From: Podarcis cretensis
Taxonomy: Eukaryota
Direction: 5' to 3'
Length of the DNA: 64,000 nucleotides
NCBI GenBank assembly: GCA_951804945.1
Contig: OX638155.1
Location: 71,176,001-71,240,000 of the forward strand
The position numbers and the translations under genes were made by a program. The notes under the pieces are model-generated. The model ran no database searches, was not told the origin of the DNA, and saw only the letters and a program-made list of their open reading frames with translations. Below, piece after piece: positions 21,568 to 64,000 of the stretch; within the stretch, counting starts at the first letter, position 1, and every line of letters begins with the position of its first letter.

Positions 21568-22060
21568 TGTCATAATTCAGGGCCGGTCAGAGGTATGTGC
21601 CTATCTCTCCAGGCACCGGCTGAATTCCTTTGACCTCCCTCCGGCGACTCCCGAAGGAAAAACACACGAGGTCCGTTCCGGCGATTTTCCTCAGGCTGTG
21701 AGAAAAACACACCAAACTGCTTCTCCTCCTCCCTGCTCTCCAGCATATCCCCAGGGAGGGGAATCAGACACAGACAGAAATGTATCTACATGTTTTATTC
21801 CTGTCTTCAGCAGTCATATAGAGAAAACATGTCTGCTCTCATCAACAAACAGAGAGAAACTCCAAACTCCACCCATGTACATCCTGTACAGGTCATATGA
21901 CACACACACTGAGCTAACATCCGGTGCTCAGTACAGAATGGACTGCCCCTTTGTTTCCATGGCAACAGTCACACACATCCTGTTTGGCTTTGCAGCCACA
22001 AGCAGCAGACTTGGCTGCTATAGCCTTTGCTTGCTGCTGCATTGCTGCTTTAGAATAACA
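21568..22060 (-). repeat. 3' LTR of the copia element
   Basis: Direct repeat of 25105-25597; one mismatch seen (21693 A vs 25230 C); minus-strand AATAAA at 21794-21799. Confidence 0.95.
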
Positions 22061-24613
22061 TACTCCCCCTAAAGTATCAATGCGTGCTGCGAGCAAAGCG
22101 TCATCCAGAGAAGAAAACAAACAGTTGTTATATGTATAACACTCCCCTGTTGTTTCAGTTCCACCCTTGGAACTACCCGCCACTGGTTTTACCAATGTAC
22201 CTCTCTGGTTGTGTGACTTCCAAGGAATGAGTGCTTCTGCATTACCTTGGTTAGCAACTCTCTGTTGTGCCTTTGTCTCTGACTCAGACACAGCTTCAAT
22301 TTGACCTTGGTCATTTACAACAGCAACACATGCAATAGCTTGGTTGGCAAACTCTTTTGAATACCTCGTGGGTGGTACACCCTTCGTTGCTCTCTCAGAC
22401 CTACGTAAGAGGTGCTGCTCTCCCTTGCTTTCTGGTTCAGCCTCTGAACTCTCTGGAGAACCAGTACTAAGCTTAATCAGTGGTTCATCCTCCTCTTCTG
22501 AGGGTCTAGTCATTGTGTGAGATGTCCTCTCAATGACTGTGACAACTGAGCTGTCTGAGCTATCGCTGTCATCATCAGTACTACTGAACTCAATAAGATC
22601 AAACTCATCATCATCATCATCAGAATCATCATCATCACCTGTGGGAAATGTGTGAACAATCACTCTCTCCTGTTCAGGAGCACTCTCTAGAAATTTTGTG
22701 AGAATCACCTTACCAGATTCAGACAAAATTACTCTGTAGAGACCCTTTTCATAACCCACAAAAATGCCTCTGGCATTCTTTACTCCACCTGGAGCTTCTG
22801 TCCTCACATGAGACCCAAAAACCTTGAAATGGGCAACAGAAGGTTTTCTGTGGAACAGTTTCTCAAAAGGAGAACTTCCCAACTCTTTTGAAACCTTTCT
22901 TAACCACGTGTAACAATATGACATTAGCGACTCAGCCCAGTACTCATGTGGCAGATGTGAACTAAGCAATTGCGCATGCATTCCCTTTTGCAATTCTTTG
23001 TTCACCCTAACACAAACACATCTGTTCCAAGCTTCTTCGGAAGCTGCAATTTTGTGTCTAATCCCTTTCTTCTTCAGGAACCTCTGGAAATCCTGTAAGA
23101 GAAAAATTGGCTTCTCATCTGTGCAAAGACAATCTATGTCAGCATCATGCATATTTTTAACCTTGTCACAAAACTCTTTAAACCTTTCTAAGGCTTCTTT
23201 CGGTCTCTCCAAAAGATAAATCCAGACAAAACCTGTAAAAGAATCAACACATATTAGGTAATACTTTGCATTGCCTCTAGATGGTGCTAAAGGACCAATC
23301 ACATCAGCATACACCCGCTGAAACGCCTTGTCGACCCTCGAGGTGACCTGCTTGGTGTTCTTCTTGGCTACACCTGCAAAAGAAATCATGTTAGTATCAC
23401 AAGAATTACATTCCATGTAATCACTTTGATCAAAAGTCAACAAATACAGTCCATCTTTCTCTTCGGCAGAAAGATACAACTCTCCATCTTTGTAGATCTC
23501 GCAGTGTTGATCATCATAGGACAGTTTTAGTCCCTTCTTGGCAATCTGCGAAACGCTGAGCAGATTGTACTTCAACTCTGGAACCAAATAAACATTATTT
23601 ATAGTCAAGTTCAGACTTTTAAGATACACAATCCCAATTCCGGTGGCTTCCAGCTCTTGACCGTTGGCTTGTTGTACAACGAAGCTTTGCTTCTTAAACG
23701 ACGAAAACAAATCCCTGCGATGGGTCATGTGAACCGTCGCTCCCGTGTCTAAAATGAAGGAATTCCCCACTTGTGGTGTGGCTTTTAGGGACATCAAAGC
23801 CTTTGCAGGCTTCGCCTGTGACTTGGCATGACTTCTGCCTGACGCCTCAGACTTCGTGGAGCTTCCCTTGGCTCCTTTGTTCTGACGTGGCTTCCTGCAG
23901 TACCGCTGAGGATGCCCAGTCTGTGCACAATTGAAGCATCGGACAACGTTCAAAGCTACAGCATTTTCTCCAGTAGCTACAGCAGTGGGGGTGTCTGAAC
24001 TCCGTTCTTCCCTCCCCCTGTCCTTGACTTCCAGGGCGGCAAGTCTGTCATGTTCGTTCAGGACCACGGCAAAGACTCTGTCCGAAGTCAAGTCTTGCGC
24101 TGGGAGAGACCCCAGCTGACTGGCAACCGTTTTGTAAGTCCGATTCAGGCTGTTGATCACCATGAAGCAAAACACTTCCTCCTGCAGACGGAAATTGCGT
24201 TCCACCATCTGCTGACGCAGAAATTTCATTTCCGTCAGGTGCGCTTGAACATCTCCATCAGGCGCAAGCCTCAGGTTAGTCAGCTTTTCAAAATACAGCA
24301 ACGCTGAAGAACCTGCATCTCTCTGATGTGTCCTTCTCAGTGTGTCCCAAACATCTTTCGCGTGCTCTAAATCTTGTATATGAACAAGCTGAGAGTCTGA
24401 CACGCACAGAATTATAGCAGTTCTGGCCTTCACATCCTGTGACTCCCAAGCACGCGTTGGTGCTGCAGGGATGGGGTTCTCAATCACCCCAAACAGTCTC
24501 TGATTCTGCAGCAAGGCCTTCATCTTAATAGACCAAGATGCATAATTGTCACTGGTCAAGAGGGGTGGAGAAGGCAGACTTCCCTTCTTGACATCCATTT
24601 TGAGTCCTTGCAT
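21914..24613 (-). CDS. Copia Gag-protease-degenerate integrase polyprotein, 899 aa
   Basis: Gag N-term LTSDNYASWSIKMKALL; CCHC knuckle CFNCAQTGHPQRYC (23897-23938); protease FILDTGATVHM; integrase core VYADVIGP...CTD; GIFVGY SH3-like region; LRRSER motif; no YVDD/RT or RNase H motifs. Confidence 0.93.
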   Translation of the reverse strand: MQGLKMDVKKGSLPSPPLLTSDNYASWSIKMKALLQNQRLFGVIENPIPAAPTRAWESQDVKARTAIILCVSDSQLVHIQDLEHAKDVWDTLRRTHQRDAGSSALLYFEKLTNLRLAPDGDVQAHLTEMKFLRQQMVERNFRLQEEVFCFMVINSLNRTYKTVASQLGSLPAQDLTSDRVFAVVLNEHDRLAALEVKDRGREERSSDTPTAVATGENAVALNVVRCFNCAQTGHPQRYCRKPRQNKGAKGSSTKSEASGRSHAKSQAKPAKALMSLKATPQVGNSFILDTGATVHMTHRRDLFSSFKKQSFVVQQANGQELEATGIGIVYLKSLNLTINNVYLVPELKYNLLSVSQIAKKGLKLSYDDQHCEIYKDGELYLSAEEKDGLYLLTFDQSDYMECNSCDTNMISFAGVAKKNTKQVTSRVDKAFQRVYADVIGPLAPSRGNAKYYLICVDSFTGFVWIYLLERPKEALERFKEFCDKVKNMHDADIDCLCTDEKPIFLLQDFQRFLKKKGIRHKIAASEEAWNRCVCVRVNKELQKGMHAQLLSSHLPHEYWAESLMSYCYTWLRKVSKELGSSPFEKLFHRKPSVAHFKVFGSHVRTEAPGGVKNARGIFVGYEKGLYRVILSESGKVILTKFLESAPEQERVIVHTFPTGDDDDSDDDDDEFDLIEFSSTDDDSDSSDSSVVTVIERTSHTMTRPSEEEDEPLIKLSTGSPESSEAEPESKGEQHLLRRSERATKGVPPTRYSKEFANQAIACVAVVNDQGQIEAVSESETKAQQRVANQGNAEALIPWKSHNQRGTLVKPVAGSSKGGTETTGECYTYNNCLFSSLDDALLAARIDTLGGVCYSKAAMQQQAKAIAAKSAACGCKAKQDVCDCCHGNKGAVHSVLSTGC
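22061..22070 (-). other. Polypurine tract (PPT)
   Basis: Minus strand AGGGGGAGTA directly abuts TG of the 3' LTR. Confidence 0.9.
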
Positions 24614-25072
24614 TGACTCTCAAACACAAGCCTCTAAAATCCAATAGCTGGCTTGTTTACACTCTGTGCACCTGGCAGCTCTAACACTGGCTGCTTGGAA
24701 AGTCCCTTTCCAACAGTTCCTTTGCAAGGGCCTAGACTAAACATGAGCTGTTTGTGCCTCTTTGGGCATAGCCTGACTTCCAGCCCTTATCTGCGTTGCT
24801 AAGCAACCACATTCCTTTCCTTGGACAGGAAAAACCACAGGAATGTTTGGAATGCAGACTCTTCTCTCTCGGAGCTGTTTTTCCCAAACGTTGCTCCCAT
24901 GAAGCAGAGAATGAATCAATCTGCATTCACACTCTTAAGCCCGAAAATCTCATACCTGGGCTCCGTAGCTTGGCTTTCAGCTTCTTCTGGTCAGCTTCTG
25001 GCTGCAGAGAATCAGCCTCCATCTCAGGCTTGCATGGAGAGGGATGAATACAGTCTCCTTGATGCAGACTCC

Positions 25073-25103
25073 CATGGATCGTAGCAACCGTCAGCTGCTA
25101 CCA
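25073..25103 (-). other. Primer-binding site for initiator tRNA-Met
   Basis: Minus strand TGGTAGCAG starts 1 nt after the 5' LTR, complementary to the recalled vertebrate tRNA-iMet 3' end; further match to CGATCCAT. Confidence 0.85.
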
Positions 25104-25104
25104 A

Positions 25105-25597
25105 TGTCATAATTCAGGGCCGGTCAGAGGTATGTGCCTATCTCTCCAGGCACCGGCTGAATTCCTTTGACCTCCCTCCGGCGACTCCCGAAGGAAAAAC
25201 ACACGAGGTCCGTTCCGGCGATTTTCCTCCGGCTGTGAGAAAAACACACCAAACTGCTTCTCCTCCTCCCTGCTCTCCAGCATATCCCCAGGGAGGGGAA
25301 TCAGACACAGACAGAAATGTATCTACATGTTTTATTCCTGTCTTCAGCAGTCATATAGAGAAAACATGTCTGCTCTCATCAACAAACAGAGAGAAACTCC
25401 AAACTCCACCCATGTACATCCTGTACAGGTCATATGACACACACACTGAGCTAACATCCGGTGCTCAGTACAGAATGGACTGCCCCTTTGTTTCCATGGC
25501 AACAGTCACACACATCCTGTTTGGCTTTGCAGCCACAAGCAGCAGACTTGGCTGCTATAGCCTTTGCTTGCTGCTGCATTGCTGCTTTAGAATAACA
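25105..25597 (-). repeat. 5' LTR of the copia element
   Basis: 493 bp, TG...CA, near-identical to 21568-22060. Confidence 0.95.
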
Positions 25598-49950: not shown

Positions 49951-51157
49951 TGAAAAAATGCTCCACGGCAGGTAATGCCACTTCGAAGAGCTTTCAGGGC
50001 AAAGTCGTTGGCGGGCTCTCTCGCTTCAAGTCTTCCCCACATGAAATAGCTGCATGAGGACAAGAGGAAAGTCACGAAACGGGGTGTGAGTTTTCCAGAG
50101 CCTTTCTAGCAGGCCGTCTCTAAGGTGGTAAAGCAGGGAGGGGAAATGCTGGCTGCAGTTCAAGCTGTGGAGGCATTGTCGAGGGAAGGAAGGAAGGGAG
50201 TTGGTTTTTGAGGCGGAGAGAGACTCGGTAGTTGCAAAGTGTGGGCGGATTCGGGCTTAAAACGTACCTGTTAGAAGAGAGCGTACCTCTCTCTCTTATT
50301 CATGTTGCAACGCGAGCTTTCTCCCCTCTGAAATGTCTGCCGTCAGCTTAATTGGTATGTAGGCATCTTTCCCTCTTTTGGTTCATCTGTGCGATGAGGA
50401 AGAAGTTTCAGAACTCTCCATTCAGCGCAGCAATGCAAACAGTTCTTTTGCAAACCACATTGTAAACTATAAATGTATTGGCTGTATTGAGGGCCCTCCT
50501 GTAAACTTGTATGTTGACGTTTGCTGCTTATATGGAAGATGTCTAAATTATATGTTTAGAAGTTATGACTGACCTACATTTTGAAAATTGGGGTGTGTCT
50601 TTCAAGTTTCTGATGGTGTTTCTGAGAAATTTACCCTGTGGGGTTTAGTTCTTCGTAACATGTAGTATGTCTTTGTAGCTGCAATCCCAAGTAATCTTCG
50701 TTGAATGTAGTGAGACTTATTTCTGAATGAACATGCATAGGCTTGTACTGTGCAGAATAGTAACTGATTATTAGCTGAGCTATCCTGATTGTCACTGCTG
50801 TCAACGACTGATCCAGTTGTCTTTTGCCTTGAGGAGGTGTAGGGTAATAATAGCCTACCTTATTTCTAAAAGTATTTGTAAGCTTTTGCCTTTTAAAGTT
50901 CTATTTGATGCATTTCAAAGATCTTGAAGCAGTTACAGCTATTGTTAACTGTCCTTTTTTCCTTTACAGTGCGCAAATGGCGAAGTTTATCTTTCAAGTA
51001 ATCGAGACAGGCAGATGAGAATATGAAGAGAAACAGGAAATCGAGTCTTGCCATTTCATTGCAGTCTCTGAGAAATTAAAAAAGGAATATGTGTTTACTT
51101 TGACTGTGAACAAAGTATCCTGTGGAGAAGCTGATCATGACACAACACTGAAGTGAA

Positions 51158-51346
51158 ATGCCTGGGAAGATGGGTATCTTTGTACTCCTGACTTTGAGCT
51201 TAATCTTAAACTTGACACATGGGCATAGCTTATTCACATGTGAACCCATTACTATCCCAAGATGTTCTGGAATGGCCTACAATATGACATTTTTTCCCAA
51301 TGTGATGGGGCACTATGATCAGCAAACTGCAGCTGCCAGAATGGGG
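51158..51346 (+). CDS. FZD6: Frizzled-6 first coding exon (exon begins 50970); signal peptide and start of the CRD
   Basis: ...[35 protein letters not shown]; donor GGG|GTGAGT; the in-frame ATG at 51170 has a better Kozak context and may be the real start. Confidence 0.93.
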
Positions 51347-51961
51347 GTGAGTTGTTCTTTCTCTACCGTACATGCTATAAATATTTTTTCTGTTATATGT
51401 ACAAATGTGATTCTGTCAGTAAAAAGAATTCTAGGTAAGACATGTTCAATATTACACATTATGAGGAAAAACCTAGTGTTCTGAAACAAGACTTGAAATA
51501 GTTACCAAATGCCTAAAAATCATAGAGAGATGCAGGTACAAACATAACAGTATGGGCATGTGACCAGATTTTAGGGTCTATTCTTACATGGTTTGAGCCT
51601 GAAAATTTACAAAAGAGCTCCTACATCCTGTCTGAATAAATGTATAGAAGATCTTCTGTGTTACCTTTTTAAATCTTCAAAGTGTTTAGTCATCTGAGCT
51701 TCCTGACTGTTTATAGCAGGCGACCTTGTGCTGTATCCCCTCAGGCTACTGGCATCTGCATGCAGTTGGCATAAAAATTCATTGCTGCCCATAAAGTTCT
51801 AAAATATGAAATGCATCTCTTCCACAGATCTGTGTATGCACAGAACTGTGTATAAAAGCATAGGTGTAGTAACTCCTCAAATAAGTTTTGTTCATTATGC
51901 TAAATGAAAGGAGTGTTAAGCTTCTCTGAAGTTTATTCTTGTCTCTAACATACTCCTTCAG

Positions 51962-52158
51962 TTACAGGTAGGTAGCCGTGTTGGTCTGCCATAGTCGAAA
52001 CAAAATTTAAAAATTCCTTCCAGTAGCACCTTAGAGACCAACTAAGTTTGTTATTGGTATGAGCTTTTGTGTGCATGAAGAAGTGTCTGTGCACACGAAA
52101 GCTCATACCAATAACAAACTTAGTTGGTCTCTAAGGTGCTACTGGAAGGAATTTTTTT
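51962..52158. mobile_element. Penelope-like pLTR insertion with inverted duplication
   Basis: 12-bp TSD ATACTCCTTCAG (51950-51961 / 52159-52170); about 67-bp inverted arms; TGAAGA...GAAAGCTC hammerhead-like core. Confidence 0.8.
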
Positions 52159-55100
52159 ATACTCCTTCAGACTAGACATTCACAATTGTCCATGGTGCAA
52201 TTGACCAAACATGCCTGTGAATTAGGGATGTAATCTAATTTTTTAAAAAAGAAACTTAACCATGTGAGTTTGAGTCAATCAATGAATTGTTAGAAGGTGC
52301 ATAAATTTCCATGGGATTTTTTTTCTAAAGAAAAAAGTACTTTAAAAATATGCATATTTTTCAGCAGGCTGTGTCAGAAGAAATTCTTTTTTCTGTCATG
52401 GAAGGCAATACCTTTTTTAAATAGTGGTGATTACTATGTACAATGCTTTCTAGTAATTGTAGTGAACATTACTTACAATTTTGAAACAATGTAGGATGTC
52501 TTTTTCTTTATCTAAATATTTTTAATAGTTTGACTAAGTGCATCTGCCTGCTTGCAGATCCTTTCTCTCTAGGTGGTGCAGCTATAGAGCGTTGGTAATG
52601 GAAAAAGCAGACATCTCTCATGTGATCACCTGCACTCTCCCTCTGCATGGTACAGTGGTGAGGAATGAGCCCAATTGTCCTCACCATTCCACCAGCTTTG
52701 AGAGCATGAGCATGAAGAGACAATAGGGTCAAGGATAGGGCAAGTGATAGTTGCCTCTGAATGCCCAATTATCCTCTCCCTCTAGAAGCCTGTACCTGCT
52801 CATGCGTTCTTCCTTTGGGTGCTGGAGCAGGAAGAATTAGGCCCAGCAAAGCAGCTGATGTTCTTTGGAGGAGCAGTCACCACTTCTGCTTACTGGGCAG
52901 TATTGCGGCAAAAATTGAACCCACACACCCTGCCATCCACAGGGAGAGTGCTGTTTAGCGAGTGGTTGCTCCTTCCATGACTAGAGGTCTCTGCTGCACT
53001 GCCCAGAGAGATGGGTAAGCAAGTTGGCAGAGGCAACTTCTTGAGATTTCTTGCCAAGTGGTACCATGGGCCCAGTCCTCCCTATGTCAGTGTCTATACC
53101 ATGAGCAAGAGAGGTAGTGGGAGCAGCTGCTGCTTTTCTTTTCTTTGCTTGTGGATGGAGGAGGTGTTGAGGGTGGTTTCTGTGGGCTTCCTGGCTAGGA
53201 TGTTCTTCCTCCTTCCTGCGCTTCAGCCTCTGCTACAGAGCAGGGGAAAGGAGAAGAGATTGCTGTTTAGTGTTTGCCAGTTTTAATATGTATGTGTTAG
53301 TGTTTATTTTGAATATTAACATTTATAATAAGTCTCCAAAAGCATTAAACTGTGAATCCCAGGTAGACTTTGGATATTTGGAATAAGAACATGAGTGAGG
53401 GGCACATTGGTATTTTCATCCTTCGCTTCCCCTCCCATTTCACCTGGAAGGAAGATGTGCATTCTTCAACCATCTGTACTGTTGAATCCTTATTCTGATT
53501 TCTGTCAGACGCTTCTAGTTTTGGTGGTATATATTTTGGTGGTGTTTTCTCATATCTAAAGATTTCTAAGCACAAGCAAATATTTGTTTGTGACAGGAAA
53601 GTTAAGGTACCTGTGCAATTAGAAATTGCACTGAAGCATTCCTTATTCTCTTGTAATATAACCGTGACAAGTCAGTGCATGTAGGAATGGAGAACAAAAC
53701 TTGATTCACATTCAGTGTTCTAAAGGATATGTCTTCTAATGTTGCAGTTCTAAGCACACTTTCTTGGAGCATATCCTATTGAAGCTAGAGGCACTTGCTT
53801 CCGAGTAAGCTTGCATGGGACTGTGCTGTAAAACAAGACTAAAACACTAATAAGTAGACAGATTTTTAGCTCTGTATATGAACATCCATCAGAGCTAATG
53901 AACAAAGTGCTAAGTAAGGTAACATTAAGACAAAAACAAAACAAAACTCATGCTAGATGGAAGTCTAAACAGGCTGTGTAAGGAGCCTCAGTGTCACAGT
54001 AAAGTTTTATGAGTGATACAAGTAAAATTCAGTGATGGAACTATTGGAAGGGAGTTTGAAAAAATGTAGAAAACATTGAAACTTTGTAATGCTATTTTAT
54101 ACAACTATGGTGTACCTGCTTTTGGAATACTTTGTATGCTTTTGGTTGGAATTATTAGGGAGAGGATTTGAAAGCAGCAGCAAGTACAGCAATATAAAAA
54201 TATAGTGTACCCACTTTAGAATACTTTGTGCAACTTTTGTGTAGTCCTACAAAAAGAACTTGAAAAGGTACAGAAAATGGTAACTATAGTGATAATGGCA
54301 TGATGATGATGACTCATCCTTTAAAAGTCTTCATGTCTTTAGCCATTCTCTGATTGTGAGCTTTTCCAGGGTATCCACCTGCCACTATTTGAGAAAACAA
54401 CAAAAAGTATTGTAACACCTTAAAGACCAACACATACAGAGAGAGCACATGATGAAAGCATGAAGAAAGGGAAAATTAAACAAGTAGAAGAGTTGATAAC
54501 TGAAATAATAGGTTTAAGCTGTTTTGATCCATAAAGATAATTCTCTGCACCATGCATTGCTACTGTGAAATTGCTATCCTGATAGTCCTCAAAAACTATT
54601 TCTATAATGCTTCTTTGTTTCAGATAGGTTAACTTTGCATCATGCTTTCGGTCAGGCTAAATTGTCATGCATTTAAGCAGTCTTCAACCTCGGCCAGTTT
54701 TATATTGTAATAGCTCAGTGGCATCAGCATACTGGTGATGAAACTGCTTCATCCCAAATCAATGCAGTCCACTTTTAGTTGTGACTAATAGCTCAGTTAT
54801 TGGCTCTGCTTTGCTCCTTCTTTTGAGTGTTTGTTCCTGACTGGAATGTGTCCTTGAGCTCTGATAATGTTTCTTGCCTGCCTGAATAGAAGATAGAGAG
54901 GGGTATGTAGGAATTAGTATACTGTACAAATAAAATATTCATTGTCCATTGCTTTGCCCACTTTTGCCTGTGACCCCTGGAAGGTTTCCCAGAAGGGAAT
55001 GCAGCCCTCCGACCAAAGCCAGCCTGCTCATGAGGTGGGATGAAGTGCCCACTTCAGGTGGCAGAAGCACAAGAGGCAGCCCACAAGAGGCAGCCCACCC

Positions 55101-57233
55101 CACTGATTCCACCATCGCCAGAATACCCTCCCCTCTTGCCAGTGAGCGGGGGGCATTCCAGCATGTGGTGTTGCACCTTGTCTTCCCTATTTCTAGGCAG
55201 AGAAGCCAAGCAGCAACTCTTTGTGGAATTGCTCCGGCAGTGGTGGGGGGTGCAGCGACAGAAGTGGTGAGAGGGTGTGGGGCGGTAGTGGAGCACATGG
55301 CAGCAATTCCCATTTTGCCTTAGGATGGTAATGAAATGGGAGGGGCTGCTCTTCTGACTGAAAGTTTCCTCATCCCTGTATTATAGCAAGATAAGATGCT
55401 AGTGCAAGCAGCCTGTATGCTCACTTGATATGGAGGAAAAAATGACTTCTTGCACCTTTTGGGGGTGTTTTTCTTTATGAATCTGAGGATGCTTCTCAAG
55501 AAAAATAAAAAGTTCTAAGCTTTTGTATTTGCACAAGTAGGGGATAGCTCTTTTCACATGTATCCCATCAAATTGCAGTTCAGTATGCCATCTGATAACT
55601 AGATTGAAAATGGTTTAGATCTGAGTTCCTACTTGGAAGTCAGTGTTCAGAGCCATGACCATGAGTATTATAAACTCTAAAACCACTGCTAATGGTGCCT
55701 CATAACTCACACCCAAGTGACTCTCCTCAGTTACTCATAAATCTGTACTTAGCGGTTCTCTCTGACCAAATGAATTTCTAACTTAGTTGCAAGTAGGGAG
55801 AATAAATTATCACTTGAAGTTAAGGATTGATGTGCTATCCCATCAGTTTGCTAAGATAACTGCAAATGCATTTTAATGTATCAACTGAACATTGCTGTCT
55901 GCTTTACATAACTGAATCTTAACGATGGAGATGAATTTTTAAAAATTAGTTCTGGGTATAGAAAGTAGCTGATGGGCAGCCTTGTGTGAGTCGCATTTCT
56001 CAACAATAGTTCCCAGTCTGGGAATGAGATCTCCTGCTCGGATTTGTTGAGAAGGTGAAAATATTACGGATTTTAAATATATGTGCTATGCCAGGAAGTC
56101 TTTGGTATTCATTTTTTTATCAATATTTTATATAATTTCCTTACCGAAAAAGAGAACCTAATAATTTTATTTTCCAGGAAAACAACAACTCCCTTTCAAT
56201 TGTCAGTTCTAATACAAGCTGCTTTGGGATTATAAAGCTGTAATTCATGTCATGGACATAGTTTAATAGCCACAGTGACAAATAAAGGCCTTGTTTTAAA
56301 ATCATAGATAAAAATGCAAACCAGATATGACCCACCTAAAATCCTATGGCATACTGTTCTATTTCTTTATTTCAGAAGTTGCCACTTCCATGTTTAGAGA
56401 TATTATTGGTAGATGTACAGGTGTACTTTTTCTTTCTGTATAAGGTTGGTGGGTGAGAGAAGGAACCAGTGGGGTTGGAGACTGCAACACTCTTGTCAAA
56501 ATTCTAAATGTTCCCATGGCCCCTGTGTTCATTGTATGCATGGAGTTATCCCAACCTTGCAAGAAACTTGTGACTCTGCCCAAAGTTGCACTCTCTTCAG
56601 TCTGAGCGGGGATATGGACTCGGCTCTCCCTGGTCAAAGTCGAGTGCTCCAGCTGCTCTGAATCTTGAAACTTCTCTTGGGACATGGTCCATTAAATTTA
56701 AACTATAACTAGCAGTCTGTATGGGCAGTATTGTCACAGTTGCTTAACAAGCCGCTTAATTAGGCAATGTGTTACATGCTTACTAGAAAGTTGAATTGCA
56801 ATGCAGAATGATGTCCCCTAACTTAAGTTGTAGAGGTTTGAAAAGCTAGCTTGGAAGTCAGGCTTGCTTTATGTGAAGTAATGCATATACATAGGTTAGA
56901 CAGGGATAACACATGTGATTGAGAGAAAAGCTATTTTTAAACATCATTCTTTCCTTTTGGAGAAAGTGAATGATGCTGTGCCTCCAGTTCACGCAAATGT
57001 GACTTGTCTTGCTGAATGTGTGTAGCTTCCAAGTCCAGTGTTTTAACTTTAATACATTAGACCAGGGGTTGCTAATGCTTTTGGTCCTGTGGGTGCAGGT
57101 AGACTTCTGAGAAAAGGTTGTGGGCACCAGTCACACTTCCTCTCACCCTTTGTAAGAATTGAAAGGTGCACTATCTGCCTAGCCAAGAGATTATCCCCGC
57201 CTATCCATGCACATGCATGCAGCACAGACACAC

Positions 57234-57234
<1 letters not shown>

Positions 57235-57263
<29 letters not shown>
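57235..57263. repeat. (TACA)n microsatellite
   Basis: Direct reading. Confidence 0.9.
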
Positions 57264-57265
<2 letters not shown>

Positions 57266-59714
57266 GTTTACACACATGTGGTGCATCTGCGCACATACAC
57301 TGTCCCTCAGCCAAGCAGTTAGACTTGAAAAGGGTTAATTTCCCCCCAAGCCTAATTAAGGGTGAGTGTGATATTTCTGGAGAGTGCAGCTAGGGAGGGA
57401 AGTTCCAAGGCCATATTGTTCAGCTTTCTCCCCAGCTGCAGCTGACAGGAAGACCACCCCTCCTCCATGCCACAGCAATTGTAGCATAGGGAGCATTTTT
57501 TTATGGCGCACAGCTTTGAAGGGTTTTTCTCGCCTTGCTGTGGAACACCACTCATCACCCCTGCCAAAGCGCTTAGGCTTGAAAAAGCCTTCTATGGGCT
57601 ACCACAGATGGATTTTTGAAGCCTAATTTCAGCAGGAGGGTGGGGATACTCCTGTTGCCAGATTGGGAGGTGTCAAGGTCCTCTTATGGACACTAGGGGT
57701 GGCCTTGGTGTGTGCAGTGCCTGTGCGCACAACTTTCTAGTTGCAGTGGCTGATGTAAGTAGACTGACATATTTTATATTCCACCCAGAAACCCATACTG
57801 CTGTCTTGGATCCAGTAATTTTGCTGGTGACTTATTGGTATGGTTTGGTGCCGAGTTGCCAGACTGTAGTTTGGTAATGATGAGCACGTCATAGGCTTGC
57901 CTACTCCTCTTCCTTTGCCCTTCCTAATTAGCTTTAATTGAGGTCAGTGTTACATCTAAGTGGCATGATTGCATTACCACTAATCATAGTTGGCTTGTAA
58001 CCAGAGACAAGGACTTGAGGTGCTGACCTAGAGAGGGTGAGAGCCAAAAGGGAAGGGGAAGAACGCTCCTGAATGTTCAGTTACAAAACCATGGTTTGAC
58101 AATGAAACTTTAATGGACTCTAGCCTAAGGCAAGTAATTGCTTTGTCTGTCACTCATATGGCCTCCCTGGCATTTGATTGGAATCTTTCAACTGATTTCA
58201 CTTGCATTAAACCCAGAGAAACACCTTCACAGTTCTAAGATCACAAGGCAGTTGCATCTGTGAATATGCAGTGTATAAATGTTGAAAGCTGCAATAATTA
58301 CATCATCTTGATCCTGATAGTGTGGTGTAAATGTAGGGGATAATTTGCTGGTTTTAGCCAGGAGAAGTTTGGATTCAAATCCATACATATACATGAAGCT
58401 CTTTGGGTGGTCTTGAGCATGTTTGTGGACTTAATTAGATAAACTTTGTTAGGTACAAAACCAAATTTTCAGTAGCACCAAGGGCTACTGGGGAAAAGAT
58501 AAGCTACTTGTCCTAAGATAAGTGGGGGTCAGATTGGAACCTAAATTAAGTTATTGCAATGGTTATTGATTGCCTCAGGCCTTGCTGCTGAGGCAGTGTA
58601 CAGTCTACAGCGCAGTGTGGTTTAAACATTTATACCTGATAATACATGTATGCTCCCCCATCTTACCCAAAATGAAATTGGCTTCTCTGCATCCCATGAT
58701 GAATTCTGTTATCAAGAAACCATGAAAAAAGTAGAAGGTATACTCTTACATTCAGTCATGTACTTTTCTCCTGGGATTGTACTTGGGAGAAATTGGGAGC
58801 AGGCCATAATCTACATATTCCCATTCTCTCCTCTTTCCTGCAGCGAACAGTAATTTGAACACCAAATTTCCCCAGACCTTGAGAGACAAAACCCTCTTTA
58901 AATGCTTAAGAAACAATTCTTAATTTCCTGAAGAGGAATGATCTCAGTTATTGTGCATTCCACCACCCTCTCCATGCTAACAATTCAACTAGAGAATGTG
59001 TTTTCCTCTGCTCTTGTTGTTGATGGTTGTTGGGAAACGTGGACTTCCCACGTTTATGGAAAGTTTCCAGTTGGTCTATTTAATGTATACGAACAGTAAA
59101 GGGAAAATATGTCTATTTATATATCTTCCAGATGGCCACTGAAAATAATAAGCAAAATAAAATTATTTCATTTAGGTAAGTATAGAACCTGGTACTTTGG
59201 AAAGCGTCATCTGTCACTTTTAACAACTAGCAGAAGGAAATTACCGAATGCAAAGTGAGCAATAGGGCTCTGGATATTTAATTAAACATGTAACATGGTT
59301 ACAAGAAACAAAATATGATGTGACTACTATAGGGTTCACAGTAGAAACCTGGAATTTATTACAGTGGCAGCAGCTACATTTCCTCATCCAACTGTTGCTG
59401 TCAGGTGTGGTTGTGTGTATATAAATACATATACACTTATTTCTCATTATCTTCCCACCCCCTACAAGGGATTCATTAACCTTCGTTTGATGCCTGCTAA
59501 AAATATTCTTGTTTAAACAAACCTACACAGATGCTTAGAAAGTTGAAGTAATTTTAATCTGTTTTAATATTTTAAGTTTTGTATGTGTTAAAGTAAGGTT
59601 GTATTCTTTTTTCTTGTTTTTTGTTTTATCTTGTAAACTACTTTGAAGGTGTTTTTTACAATCAAACAGTGCCTAAATTTTATGAAATAAATAAAATAAA
59701 CAGATGAAGTCATT

Positions 59715-60164
59715 GAATTTAATTTTTGAATTGAATTTACTTTATTACAGTCACAGACCAGCATAAGCAAAACATCTAAATAAATAGCATAACATTGTGA
59801 GTCTAAGTGGATAATTGTTAAATAAATGGGAGCAAGAACCAAATGTAGATTAAAACATATACATAGAATATTTAATTAAGCATAAATAATGGATGAGTAA
59901 AATCTGATCATAAAAATTAAAAAAGACCAGTTAAAACAGCTATATGGGGTGGGGTTCAGAAGTGCGGATCTAACAATATGGGCCTTCAATTTAGGACTGA
60001 ATTGTAGCATAGGCCATCCTTCGATGAATATCTATCATGGCAGCGCAAGATCTGGCGATTGAATATGTGACTTCTGGGCTTTCATCCAATAGGGAAATGT
60101 TGTGTTGTTCTGAACACCCAGGGGACTTATATAAGATGGGTTGGATAAACCTAGTTTGAATGTC
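59715..60164 (-). mobile_element. 5'-truncated LINE 3' end (RTEX-like, clade tentative)
   Basis: Minus-strand ORF remnant DIQTRFIQPILY...LLDESPEVTYSIARSCAAMIDIHRR..*; AATAAA and (ATTCA)n-like tail; TSD GATGAAGTCATT. Confidence 0.6.
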
Positions 60165-60198
60165 TACTTACCTGGCAGGGGAGACACCTTGATCATGA
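60165..60198 (+). pseudogene. U1 snRNA 5' fragment (about nt 2-35), retrocopy
   Basis: TACTTACCTGGCAGGGGAGACACCTTGATCATGA vs recalled human U1 ATACTTACCTGGCAGGGGAGATACCATGATCACGA (3 mismatches); rest of U1 absent. Confidence 0.9.
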
Positions 60199-60329
60199 TG
60201 AAGTCATTCTGTGCATACATTCCTTAAATAGTGAGTCTATATATGCCTATAGCATGAAACTCTCAAAAGCCTTTTGGTGCTGAATTTCTTGCTCTGTGGG
60301 CTTGCTTTTTTGGTCAAGCTTTTATTATT

Positions 60330-60870
60330 TCATTTTATAATGCATATATAGCAAAGAGAACAATTATAACAACAGTTGAAAACTAAAAGATGAAAAACAA
60401 AACCATAAAATAGGCATGAGTACAGTTGCTCATCGGTTAAAATAACAAAGTCCAGGTAAAGACTATCAACGTTGTCAGATTATCAAGTGTAGTTCTAGAT
60501 TTACCAAATCTTTATCATAGAGGTTTGTCTTGGAAATAATGGTTCTTATATGCTAAATCATATAAAAAGTGTCTGGAGGTTATAGTCCTTGTTGAAATCT
60601 CAAATTATGCATGGTTTTACCCCACTATACATATATTCCAGAGGTGAGTGGTACCAAGCGTCCAGTGTAAGATTTTGGGCTGTTTTACGTGGAGCTGCAA
60701 TGACTGTTCTTGCTGCCAAGATCGTATATAAGACCAATTCTTTTTGACAATATATTTACATTGGTTTCATCAAAAATATTCAGTAACATTAATTTTGGAC
60801 AAGAAACAATTGTTTCTTTAGTAATGTTGATCATTTCTGTCAAAAGTAAATTCCAGAAATATTTCACAGT
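60330..60870 (-). mobile_element. Degenerate L1-clade LINE 3' fragment (homologous copy near 310-410)
   Basis: Minus peptide KYFWNLLLTEMINIT...CPKLMLLNIF...AARTVIAA; 3' region shares GGTTAAAATAACAAA..TCCA.GTAAAGACT...CAGATTATCAAGT.TAGTTC with 310-410. Confidence 0.6.
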
Positions 60871-61395
60871 CTATGGGCTTTTAGTAGCTGTTGCAGTGGG
60901 CTTCCATGGTTCTCCCTGGAGCCAACTGCTTCCTGATGTTTTAAAAAGTTTTATGTTGACCATGTTAAAGATAGATGAGAGTTGCATGAATCTAACTGGA
61001 AAGAAATTGCAAGATGCAAATGTCCAAATTCAATGTTTTGTAGTCACATCGTTCAGTTTGGTGCATGCTCCTTTTTTTATACTTCCAAACTTACTTTTCC
61101 TCTGCTCAGCAAGATGCTCTAGGAATCTGGCATTGCCTTGAAGACTGTGTTTCCCTATGCAGGGCAACAGCAGCAGTAGGAGAGATGGGGAAATGTGAAA
61201 CATGGCTATTGGCAAAGGCAGATGAGAGAAGATGAGCTGGAGTGCCCTCAACCTCCATTTAAACACTTGTTCCACTTCTGAAATCTCATGATTTACTAAT
61301 CAATTGTAACTCAAGTTCTGTAACAAGACAGTGTCAGTTTTACAAGAAAACTTTGTAGATGTGCTAATCAAAGTACCATTTTCCCTCTCCCAAAG

Positions 61396-61592
61396 GATTT
61401 CCTTCCTCTTCTGAATGTCCAGTGCTCACCAGATATTCATGCATTTCTTTGCAAAGCATTTGTGCCTGCCTGTTTGGATCAATCGCGTGTGATTCACCCA
61501 TGCCGAAGTCTCTGTGAAAGAGTGTACTCTGACTGTAAACAAGTGATAAACACTTTTGGAATTAATTGGAACGAGGAGCTTGAATGCAGCAG
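61396..61592 (+). CDS. FZD6: FZD6 coding exon (cysteine-rich domain)
   Basis: AAG|GAT...AG|GTACAG, 197 nt; DFLPLLNVQCSPDIHAFLCKAFVPAC...PCRSLCERVYSDCKQVINTFGINWNEELECSR. Confidence 0.95.
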
Positions 61593-62384
61593 GTACAGTG
61601 TTTTTAATTCTCTTTATTTCCAATGGATTTTACTCTGGCCTAAGACAAAGTCCTAGTCCATACATTCATGCAATAAACTTCTCTTTGTTTGTTACATATC
61701 AGCTTGTGTGCCTCCTCTACACAGATGATCTTCTGTATAAATGGGTGCTCTTGGTTGCAATCAATTTATGTGATGACACCCATCACCCCAAATGCATGCA
61801 GTTCTTCCATTCCCCTCCTTTTTTTGAGGCAGAACAGTTGTGAATTGTACTTCCCAGGATTATTTGTGATGAGAAGAGTGTGTCTGCTCTTTCGAGGGGA
61901 GAGGAGCACTGCCAGGTTTATGCATATGCTTGGACCAAGTGTATATCTGATGAAGTGAATAAGCAAATTTGCTTTGCATATATATTTCAACCTAGACTGT
62001 TCAACTTTTCCATTCTCTTCTGTACAAGCTCTTTAGTGCTTTGGATTCTTGCTCATCCATATAGGAAACAGAGATCATTACAGGACTAGTGTGCATGGTA
62101 GTTGGTAAACAGCAGTTGAGGTGAGGAAGACTCTGAAGAATTAGGAAAAACTCATACCTTGAGCCCCCATCTCCTCAAAGACGAAGCACTTTGGAAGGAG
62201 AACTTTATTGTTGCCTTTTCTTCTGCCATGGTCATAAAGCACATAATATGATATCTCCTATAAAGGACAACATGTTAATTTGGAGGCCACTTTATTTCAA
62301 AAGCATTTATAAATAGCTTTAATACTTTTTAAAAAATCTATGTGTTATACAACATATAAAGCAATGGAAGCAGTGGCCAGTCAT

Positions 62385-62520
62385 GCCTGGGTAGCTCAGT
62401 TGATTAAAGCATGGTGCTGATGCCAAGGTCTGATCCCCGTATGGGACAGCTGCATATTTACAGGAGGCTGGACTGGATGGTTCTCATGGTCCCTTACTTC
62501 TCTACAATTCTATGATTTTA
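62385..62520 (+). mobile_element. tRNA-head / CR1-tail SINE (Squam2-like), degenerate
   Basis: GGTAGCTCAGTTG head and ATTCTATGATT CR1-type tail. Confidence 0.55.
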
Positions 62521-63135
62521 TGGCTGCATCTCTCAGGCAAGTGTTTGGCCTCAGCTATACTTGCTTTGGAAAACTCTTACAATGACCACTCCAGTTCACT
62601 CTTCCTGGAGCTGCCTTGAAAGATGGTGGAAGAATGCTGTGGGTTGCCTCTTGACTGGCACAGGCCACAGCTATTTTAGCATACCTGTACTGGCTTTCTG
62701 TTAGCTTCTAGGCCCTGTACAAAGTGCTAATGAAAACTATTAAAAAACCTGCCTGGTCTGGGCTCTGCATAGACAAGCATTTCCTCTCATATGTACCTCC
62801 CTGCTCCCTCAGATCTGTGGGCATGCACTGCTTCAAAGGGCACTTTTGTCCAGGGCTTTAATCCCTGCCAAATCAGCAAACAGGGACTGAATCCTACTGC
62901 CTTGGCTGCGCAATCTTGGAGCCCCTGATGGAGCAAGATTGGCCTGCAAGCTGGAGGCTCCTCGCCCTTGTAATTGAGGTTACCGGTATGTTTCCTTAAA
63001 AAAATATATCGTTTTTATTCTTTGCGATCCCAGTCCCAGTCTAGTTTGATAACCAAGCATCTGAAGTATGTGCTCTGAGCCTCTAGGCAAATAGCACTGA
63101 GTGGTCCCTCTACATTTTCTCTCTTTCCTTTCTAG

Positions 63136-64000
63136 GTTGGAGGATTGTGATGAAACTGCTGCTGTCACTCCTTCTCTCGCTACAAAATCTCATGACACTA
63201 AGAAGACTCCAGGACAGCCCAGAAGGGATTATGGATTTTGGTGTCCACGTCATCTGCAGACCTCCGGTGGCCAAGGCTACAAGTTTTTGGGAATTGATCA
63301 GTGTGCACCCCCCTGTCCCAACATGTACTTCAATAATCATGAGCTAGACGTTGCCAAAAGCTTCATTGGGATTGTTTCAATTTTTTGCCTTTGCGCGACT
63401 CTGTTCACATTCCTAACATTTTTGATTGATGTTAAGCGGTTCAGATATCCAGAGAGGCCAATAATATACTATTCTGTTTGTTACAGCATAGTGTCTCTGG
63501 TATACTTCCTTGGGTTTGTCCTGGGAAACAGAACTGCCTGTAATAAGGTAGATGAAAAACTGCAGCTTGGAGAGACAGTTGTTCTTGGTTCTCAGAACAA
63601 AGCCTGCACAATTGTTTTTATGGCTCTGTACTTTTTCACCATGGCTGGAACTGTGTGGTGGGTGATCCTCACAGTCACTTGGTTCCTAGCTGCCGGACGA
63701 AAGTGGAGCTGTGAAGCTATTGAGCAAAAGGCAATGTGGTTCCATGCAATTGCCTGGGGCATGCCTGGCTTTCTCACCATTATGCTTCTTGCCATGAACA
63801 AAGTGGAAGGTGACAACATCAGCGGTGTTTGTTTCGTTGGCCTCTATGACCTGGATGCTTCCAGATACTTTGTCCTTTTGCCTTTGTGCCTTTGTGTTTT
63901 TGTTGGATTGTCTCTCCTCTTAGCAGGCATAATTTCTCTAAATCACGTGCGGCAAGTTATACAGAATGATGGCAGGAATCAAGAAAAGCTGAAGAAATTC
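63136..64000 (+). CDS. FZD6: FZD6 large coding exon (linker and transmembrane helices), runs off the window
   Basis: TAG|G; LEDCDE...[35 protein letters not shown]...[15 protein letters not shown]...[23 protein letters not shown]; open to base 64000. Confidence 0.96.

Follow-up and report, generated by a model that had tools for sequence, protein, structure and literature searches.

The 64,000-nucleotide stretch of Podarcis cretensis DNA analysed here (the window) contains a dead chimeric retrocopy, in which the 3′ end of an RTE-X-like LINE is positioned head to head with nucleotides (nt) 2-35 of U1 snRNA within one 12-bp target-site duplication (TSD), and which likely arose in one insertion by twin priming on two RNAs. 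The geometry and the twin-priming model are already known for L1; what appears to be new here is the non-L1 (RTE-X-like) partner and the high frequency of such composites. The finding defines neither a new kind of element nor a host function. The composite set offers dozens of natural events from one genome in which two LINE clades with distinguishable target-site signatures are active, and bears on an open question in LINE biology, namely how the second nick is used and how the 5′ end is attached.

Structure of the insertion

The insertion and its host gene comprise the following features, given as window positions:

51152..63997, plus strand: Frizzled-family gene (host context), with Fz-domain exons within 51152-51481 and 61324-61653 and a membrane-region exon within 63131-63997
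59703..59714, no strand: left TSD, 12 bp, GATGAAGTCATT; its length matches ordinary copies of the window LINE family (mostly 10-13 bp)
59715..59746, minus strand: LINE 3′ end, consisting of AATAAA and an imperfect simple-repeat tail of the (AATTC)n/(ATTC)n type, which family copies also have
59747..59993, minus strand: LINE stop codon (59993-59991) and 3′ UTR
59994..60164, minus strand: C-terminal 57 codons of an RTE-X-like LINE ORF2; the truncation falls immediately after the CCHC knuckle that longer copies contain
60165..60166, no strand: junction microhomology TA, 2 nt, common to the native LINE and U1 nt 2-3
60165..60198, plus strand: U1 snRNA nt 2-35, with its end in loop I; the priming microhomology is formed by nt 34-35, which are shared with the TSD
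60197..60208, no strand: right TSD, 12 bp, GATGAAGTCATT

Both the LINE and the U1 parts are enclosed by a single TSD, the left and right copies of which are 100% identical, and the LINE alone is not surrounded by a second one. The LINE part (59715-60164, minus strand) spans 450 nt and is joined 5′ to 5′ to U1, which lies in the opposite orientation; this is not the co-oriented layout, with the snRNA 5′ of the LINE, of U6/L1 chimeras of the template-switch or RNA-ligation type. The U1 piece matches a host U1 variant of the gene cluster (locus L035) at 34 of 34 positions and lacks nt 1 (A). Its last two bases, GA at nt 34-35, are also the first two bases of the right TSD, and its truncation falls in loop I, which is single-stranded in the fold of the host U1. 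At the other end of the insertion, the LINE tail repeat continues 3 nt into the target. A first-pass annotation of the window had described the perfect duplication, the minus-strand LINE 3′ end and a plus-strand U1 fragment starting at nt 2 and continuing into the GA of the TSD, all of which we recover, the LINE now being recognizable as a multi-copy element represented by its ORF2 C-terminus, 3′ UTR, AATAAA and tail. It had also described the two parts as joined without a spacer. They do abut 5′ to 5′, with the refinement that the inner junction contains 2 nt of microhomology, because the native LINE sequence ends in TA at the break.

The outer junctions are present in contigs assembled from short reads. 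Contigs of run X15 match 59545-59761 and 60169-60678 exactly, and a contig from run X1, which carries another organism code and comes from another study, spans 60171-60681 (U1, TSD and flank) with 1 difference. The inner LINE-U1 junction is bridged by no contig among those listed from these runs. In the 8 public runs, contigs break in high-copy repeats on both flanks, and no empty orthologous site was found among them.

The insertion is located between two Fz-domain exons of the Frizzled-family gene, with the LINE antisense to the gene, and is a dead intronic relic. In the LINE strand (minus), the antisense U1 end at 60165-60175 amounts to a perfect match to the 5′ splice site consensus; given that it lies antisense to the host gene, no effect is expected.

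The LINE partner

The window LINE interval belongs to a multi-copy family, with 43 matches at 82-94% identity among the 40 scored of 131 candidates and a pairwise identity of ∼88% across 24 aligned copies. Longer family copies run upstream into ORF2 through the CCHC knuckle and not into U1. The first-pass annotation had called for a check that antisense U1 is not native to the LINE: none of the 24 family copies that span the junction carries the motif, which rules out that origin, and 20 of the 24 match the native-sequence pattern at this position.

Intact relatives (L153-L156) encode ORF1 and an ORF2 of 1121-1159 aa with APE, RT and CCHC regions, and end in simple-repeat tails; one is 97% identical to a UniRef entry from Podarcis muralis. 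In an RT tree of 28 rows, the window family is placed in a squamate clade (100/100) together with Anolis proteins, adjoins one of these (98/96), and is separate from the host groups that we take, from sequence features, to be L1, BovB, L2 and Rex1. The groups nearest to the squamate clade are mollusc and insect proteins (80/94, unstarred). An ORF2 with APE and RT that is preceded by an ORF1, together with a simple-repeat tail, is characteristic of RTE-X, although not unique to it, and RTE-X is the name that we presume for this clade. A Pfam search of the LINE proteins gave no clade-specific domain, and the PDB matches (L1 ORF2p, R2) do not classify the window LINE. The LINE is best described as RTE-X-like and by its RT lies outside the host L1, BovB, L2 and Rex1. 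The hallmarks of an L1-made chimera are absent from the insertion: the RT tree places the LINE outside L1, the tail is a simple repeat without poly(A), and there is no TTTT/A-type nick. The earlier proposal of a non-L1 partner thus gains support from the tree, the tail and the target sites described below.

A TSD was called in 15 of 29 ordinary family copies; 13 of these measure 10-13 bp (two or three of them could have arisen by chance) and the other two 18 bp, with mismatches. These lengths, mostly 10-13 bp, are in line with the 7-15 bp range for RTE that the available text of PMC6007223 quotes from Ichiyanagi & Okada 2008. Several RTE-X-like families have dozens of copies that keep ORF2 (1121-1159 aa) open and score almost identically, and for that reason are probably active now.

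Recurrence of snRNA-LINE composites

In the 1.5-Gb host genome, the 18-nt sequence of U1 nt 4-21 has 83 exact matches. These consist of 13 full or near-full U1 genes or retrocopies, the window, 65 further loci and 4 longer pseudogenes. The analysed set of 86 U1 loci is made up of the window, the 65 loci, the 4 longer pseudogenes and 16 one-mismatch loci, with 18 two-mismatch matches left out. Classes were set by hand after automatic calls.

Inverted LINE and U1 composites within one TSD account for 28 of the 83 exact matches, with 23 L1, 4 RTE-X-like and 1 unclassified partner, and the one-mismatch loci add 3 L1 and 2 RTE-X-like composites. Their layout is a TSD, an inverted LINE 3′ end with its tail, U1 from nt 1-4 to about nt 33, and the second TSD. 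Since the search pattern required U1 nt 4-21, the presence of a complete U1 5′ end partly reflects the way in which the loci were found. Another 25 of the 86 loci are solitary truncated U1 copies with TSDs, and 28 of the 86 remain unclassified. Under a strict automatic rule (a 12-bp repeat plus a LINE tail), composite-like calls were made at 22 of the 86 U1 ends versus 50 of 16,584 random anchors. The same arrangement is found with other snRNAs. Examination of 30 of 112 U5 matches gave 7 L1 and 2 RTE-X-like composites, and 66 of 112 U2 matches gave 6 L1 and 10 RTE-X-like composites, the second U2 batch leaving out two near-full-length copies and one long copy. None of 146 U1, U2 and U5 loci showed an snRNA and a LINE in the same orientation with a TSD closing the pair (exact, at least 11 bp, within the flank analysed).

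Nine of the 18 RTE-X-like calls have protein evidence (the window, L066, L075 through its family, L209, L236, L244, L248 weakly, L255 and L285) and nine were made by tail sequence only; 17 of the 18 have a TSD. An apparent preference of U2 for RTE-X-like partners is not established, because the RTE-X-like to L1 ratio of 7:1 in the first 30 U2 loci became 3:5 in the next 36. The latter compares with 8:34 for U1 and U5 combined (p=0.35), and the pooled U2 ratio is 10:6 (p=0.003).

Several loci deserve individual mention. L108, an automatic composite call with a 10-bp repeat but without a LINE tail, was dropped, and the apparent TSDs of L171 and L089 (26-30 bp) were discounted as repeats. At L107, an inverted partner with a (TAA)n tail and an 18-bp TSD matches neither the L1 nor the RTE-X-like profile and is possibly a third LINE clade. 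The partners at L097, L076, L118 and L110 look like internally deleted, non-autonomous L1 derivatives; in L097 and L110 the point of attachment to U1 may be the natural 5′ end of the partner. The U1/L1 composites L084 and L088 lie on different contigs, have different TSDs and break at nearly one L1 position, which may be chance. In some composites hardly anything of the LINE is present beyond its tail (L114, 24 nt; L231, 53 nt; L093, 59 nt; L251, 76 nt), and this short-LINE series could extend to zero length in some of the solitary "tailless" copies whose TSD ends are T-rich (L071, L087 and L119). At L206, which forms a U2/U5 pair with L237, the U2 and U5 fragments are 1.6 kb apart and each is apparently solitary, and one U5 fragment has been triplicated together with its flanks (L220-L222).

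Target sites, priming and junctions

Target sites differ according to the LINE partner. The L1 composites (n=39) have TSDs of 13-21 bp with pyrimidine-rich ends on the LINE side (131 of 156 positions), followed by a purine in 35 of 39, which indicates that the LINE used the first nick. The RTE-X-like composites (n=14, leaving out L073, L075 and L171) have TSDs of 10-20 bp, with pyrimidine at 25 of 56 positions, a following purine in 8 of 14, and no L1 nick motif. Median TSD length is 13 bp for RTE-X-like versus 17 bp for L1 composites (p=3e-5), and the end compositions differ (p=4e-8); the shorter RTE-X-like TSDs agree with those of ordinary family copies. The dependence of target sites on the LINE partner argues that cutting at the RTE-X-like sites was done by that element's own machinery.

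In 77 of the 86 loci the U1 copy breaks off at nt 25-39, within or beside loop I, and the end ranges are narrow for each snRNA (U1 mostly 29-39, U2 33-38, U5 mostly 39-51). Priming microhomology of at least 2 nt occurs in 24 of 32 L1 and 9 of 12 RTE-X-like composites, compared with 15.6% expected if all four bases were equally frequent. It is also present in 30 of 43 solitary truncated snRNA copies, and therefore this feature alone does not single out twin priming. Inner-junction microhomology of at least 2 nt was found in 7 of 12 cleanly aligned cases (p=0.0009), the 12 being those, out of 45 tried, with a close homologue aligned from its first base.

Short tandem repeats are found at the snRNA 5′ end or the junction in L099, L108, L113, L237, L239 and L096, suggesting RT slippage or repeated jumps at the RNA end. 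We also considered extended U1-LINE pairing near the junction, of which there is a 7-nt match in the window and a 9-nt match in L065. Scores of at least 9 occur in 2 of 22 U1 cases versus a 1.2% background, a post hoc and weak result that excludes L084, where the best match is another chimera, and we did not retain the idea.

Proposed mechanism and alternatives

In the twin-priming reading of the insertion, the LINE endonuclease would make a staggered cut, and the first nick would prime cDNA on the LINE RNA tail (TPRT), stopping after ∼450 nt. The second nick, ending in TC, would pair with the GA at U1 nt 34-35 in the single-stranded loop I and be extended on U1 as far as its 5′ end. The two cDNAs would then be joined via the 2-nt microhomology, either by annealing and repair or by a jump of the RT from the U1 end onto the LINE cDNA. 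Priming of the second nick on U1, in effect twin priming in trans, was the proposal of the first-pass annotation, which further suggested that U1 was perhaps bound to the LINE RNP. In favour of such priming are the recurrence of the structure, the microhomology at the priming site and target sites that differ by clade. The cut was likely made by RTE-X-like machinery rather than by L1, and we consider it somewhat more likely than not that the element's own RT copied U1.

Part of this picture would change if U1 had entered the same single event as a pre-cut 5′ fragment of ∼33-35 nt, captured by a free 3′ end through a template jump or as a repair patch at the second DNA end, and copied by any RT present, including L1 ORF2p. 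The narrow ranges in which U1, U2 and U5 pieces end would suit such fragments, and the available text of Law & Burns 2026 (PMC13174262) proposes pre-cut tRNA halves for human antisense chimeras; in addition, most U1 composites here are L1-made and most solitary copies have L1-length TSDs, as copying by any RT would allow. The geometry overlaps with that of twin priming. Nevertheless, the breaks are spread across the whole loop and track target microhomology, as internal priming predicts, although ragged fragments would still be compatible, and we consider this origin improbable.

A much smaller chance attaches to two sequential insertions, in which a tailless U1 retrocopy with its TSD was followed by a LINE that landed precisely at the 5′ edge of that copy, or the order was reversed. 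It is true that solitary, truncated U1 copies flanked by TSDs are common, and the 8 runs, with contigs that break in the flanking repeats, contain no empty orthologous site. However, the window LINE lacks a TSD of its own even though its family makes them, every composite is inverted, and TSD length and nick motif track the LINE partner and not the snRNA; the missing TSD and the fixed orientation make this course of events unlikely. We find it similarly hard to credit that L1 machinery moved the RTE-X-like RNA in trans and built the whole chimera, in which case only the known L1 phenomenon would be involved. L1 is active here, with 39 composites that have a TSD, and lizard L1 is described as relaxed in the available text of PMC5322556. 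Against this, the insertion has a simple-repeat tail, no poly(A) and no L1 nick motif, and its 12-bp TSD is typical of the window family and under the L1 range here (13-21).

More generally, we lean slightly towards the view that second-nick priming on the loop of a bystander snRNA is a general property of APE-type LINE machinery and is not peculiar to L1. At the first nick RTE-X-like elements depend on their own 3′ tail; at the second they would accept U1, U2 or U5 and use a short bridging cDNA to attach the 5′ end. The template stringency of the first nick, on the evidence of the composite set, need not apply at the second. If this general reading is true, about one-third of this lizard's U1 5′-end copies would be explained, and every U1 case would equip the LINE strand with a 5′ splice site that fits the consensus perfectly.

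Relation to earlier work

Twin priming in cis, reportedly described by Ostertag and Kazazian in 2001, is said to produce the 5′ inversions of L1. The insertion resembles this process, as presented in the available text of Kojima 2010 (PMC2912911), in having two primers and microhomology at the 5′ and inversion junctions, and differs from it in that the second template is a different RNA.

The first-pass annotation had described known snRNA-LINE chimeras as co-oriented and twin priming as limited to a single RNA. This does not stand, as inverted chimeras are reported in both PMC4476161 and PMC13174262. In the part of Doucet et al. 2015 (PMC4476161) available to us, 3′-truncated U1, U2, U5 and U6 are inverted against L1 in one TSD and twin priming is named; such cases make up 7 of 30 human snRNA-repeat copies, one of them U1/L1. 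Our composites share with these a truncated snRNA opposite a 5′-truncated LINE in one TSD, the break in a loop, target microhomology and the LINE-side nick motif. They differ in the RTE-X-like partner of the insertion and in the proportion of U1 5′ matches that are inverted composites (28 of 83 here). According to the same text, template switching is the sole route to chimeras in the L2 and RTE clades, a claim for non-L1 clades that the composite set contradicts; Anolis was screened there for U6 only, and three U6/RTEX-2 chimeras were read as template switching. Law & Burns 2026 (PMC13174262), as far as its available text goes, reports antisense 5S rRNA, tRNA-half, U5 and U2 chimeras with LINE-1 and proposes twin priming; its human U1 sheet has 4 rows, 1 antisense, and its U2 sheet 13 rows, 9 antisense. 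Like our composites, these have the RNA 5′ end at the junction, a loop truncation and antisense orientation, but unlike the insertion they involve human L1 only.

The tailless, 3′-truncated snRNA retropseudogenes of Noll et al. 2015 (PMC5322556), which include the green anole, show the same U1, U2 and U5 break regions and target microhomology. In contrast to the insertion, they are solitary and attributed to L1, and the available text makes no mention of an opposite or inverted arrangement. The R2 PRINT paper (PMC11371274), in its available part, describes snap-back and U6 as extra templates, which is not the inverted snRNA/LINE structure. The available portions of PMC5389967, PMC5753468 and PMC6789731 contain nothing on non-L1 twin priming. 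Therefore, the first-pass claim of novelty holds only in part: inverted snRNA/L1 chimeras had been published (Doucet 2015; Law & Burns 2026), whereas we found no report of an inverted snRNA chimera with a non-L1 LINE, or of inverted composites at this frequency, in the literature searched, the scope of which took in a minority of subscription papers.

An additional element in the window

The window also contains an LTR element at 21568-25597, with 493-bp LTRs that share 99.8% identity. Its 901-aa ORF, on the minus strand, encodes motifs resembling gag, protease and integrase, in an order that we take to be Copia-like. This element is very young.
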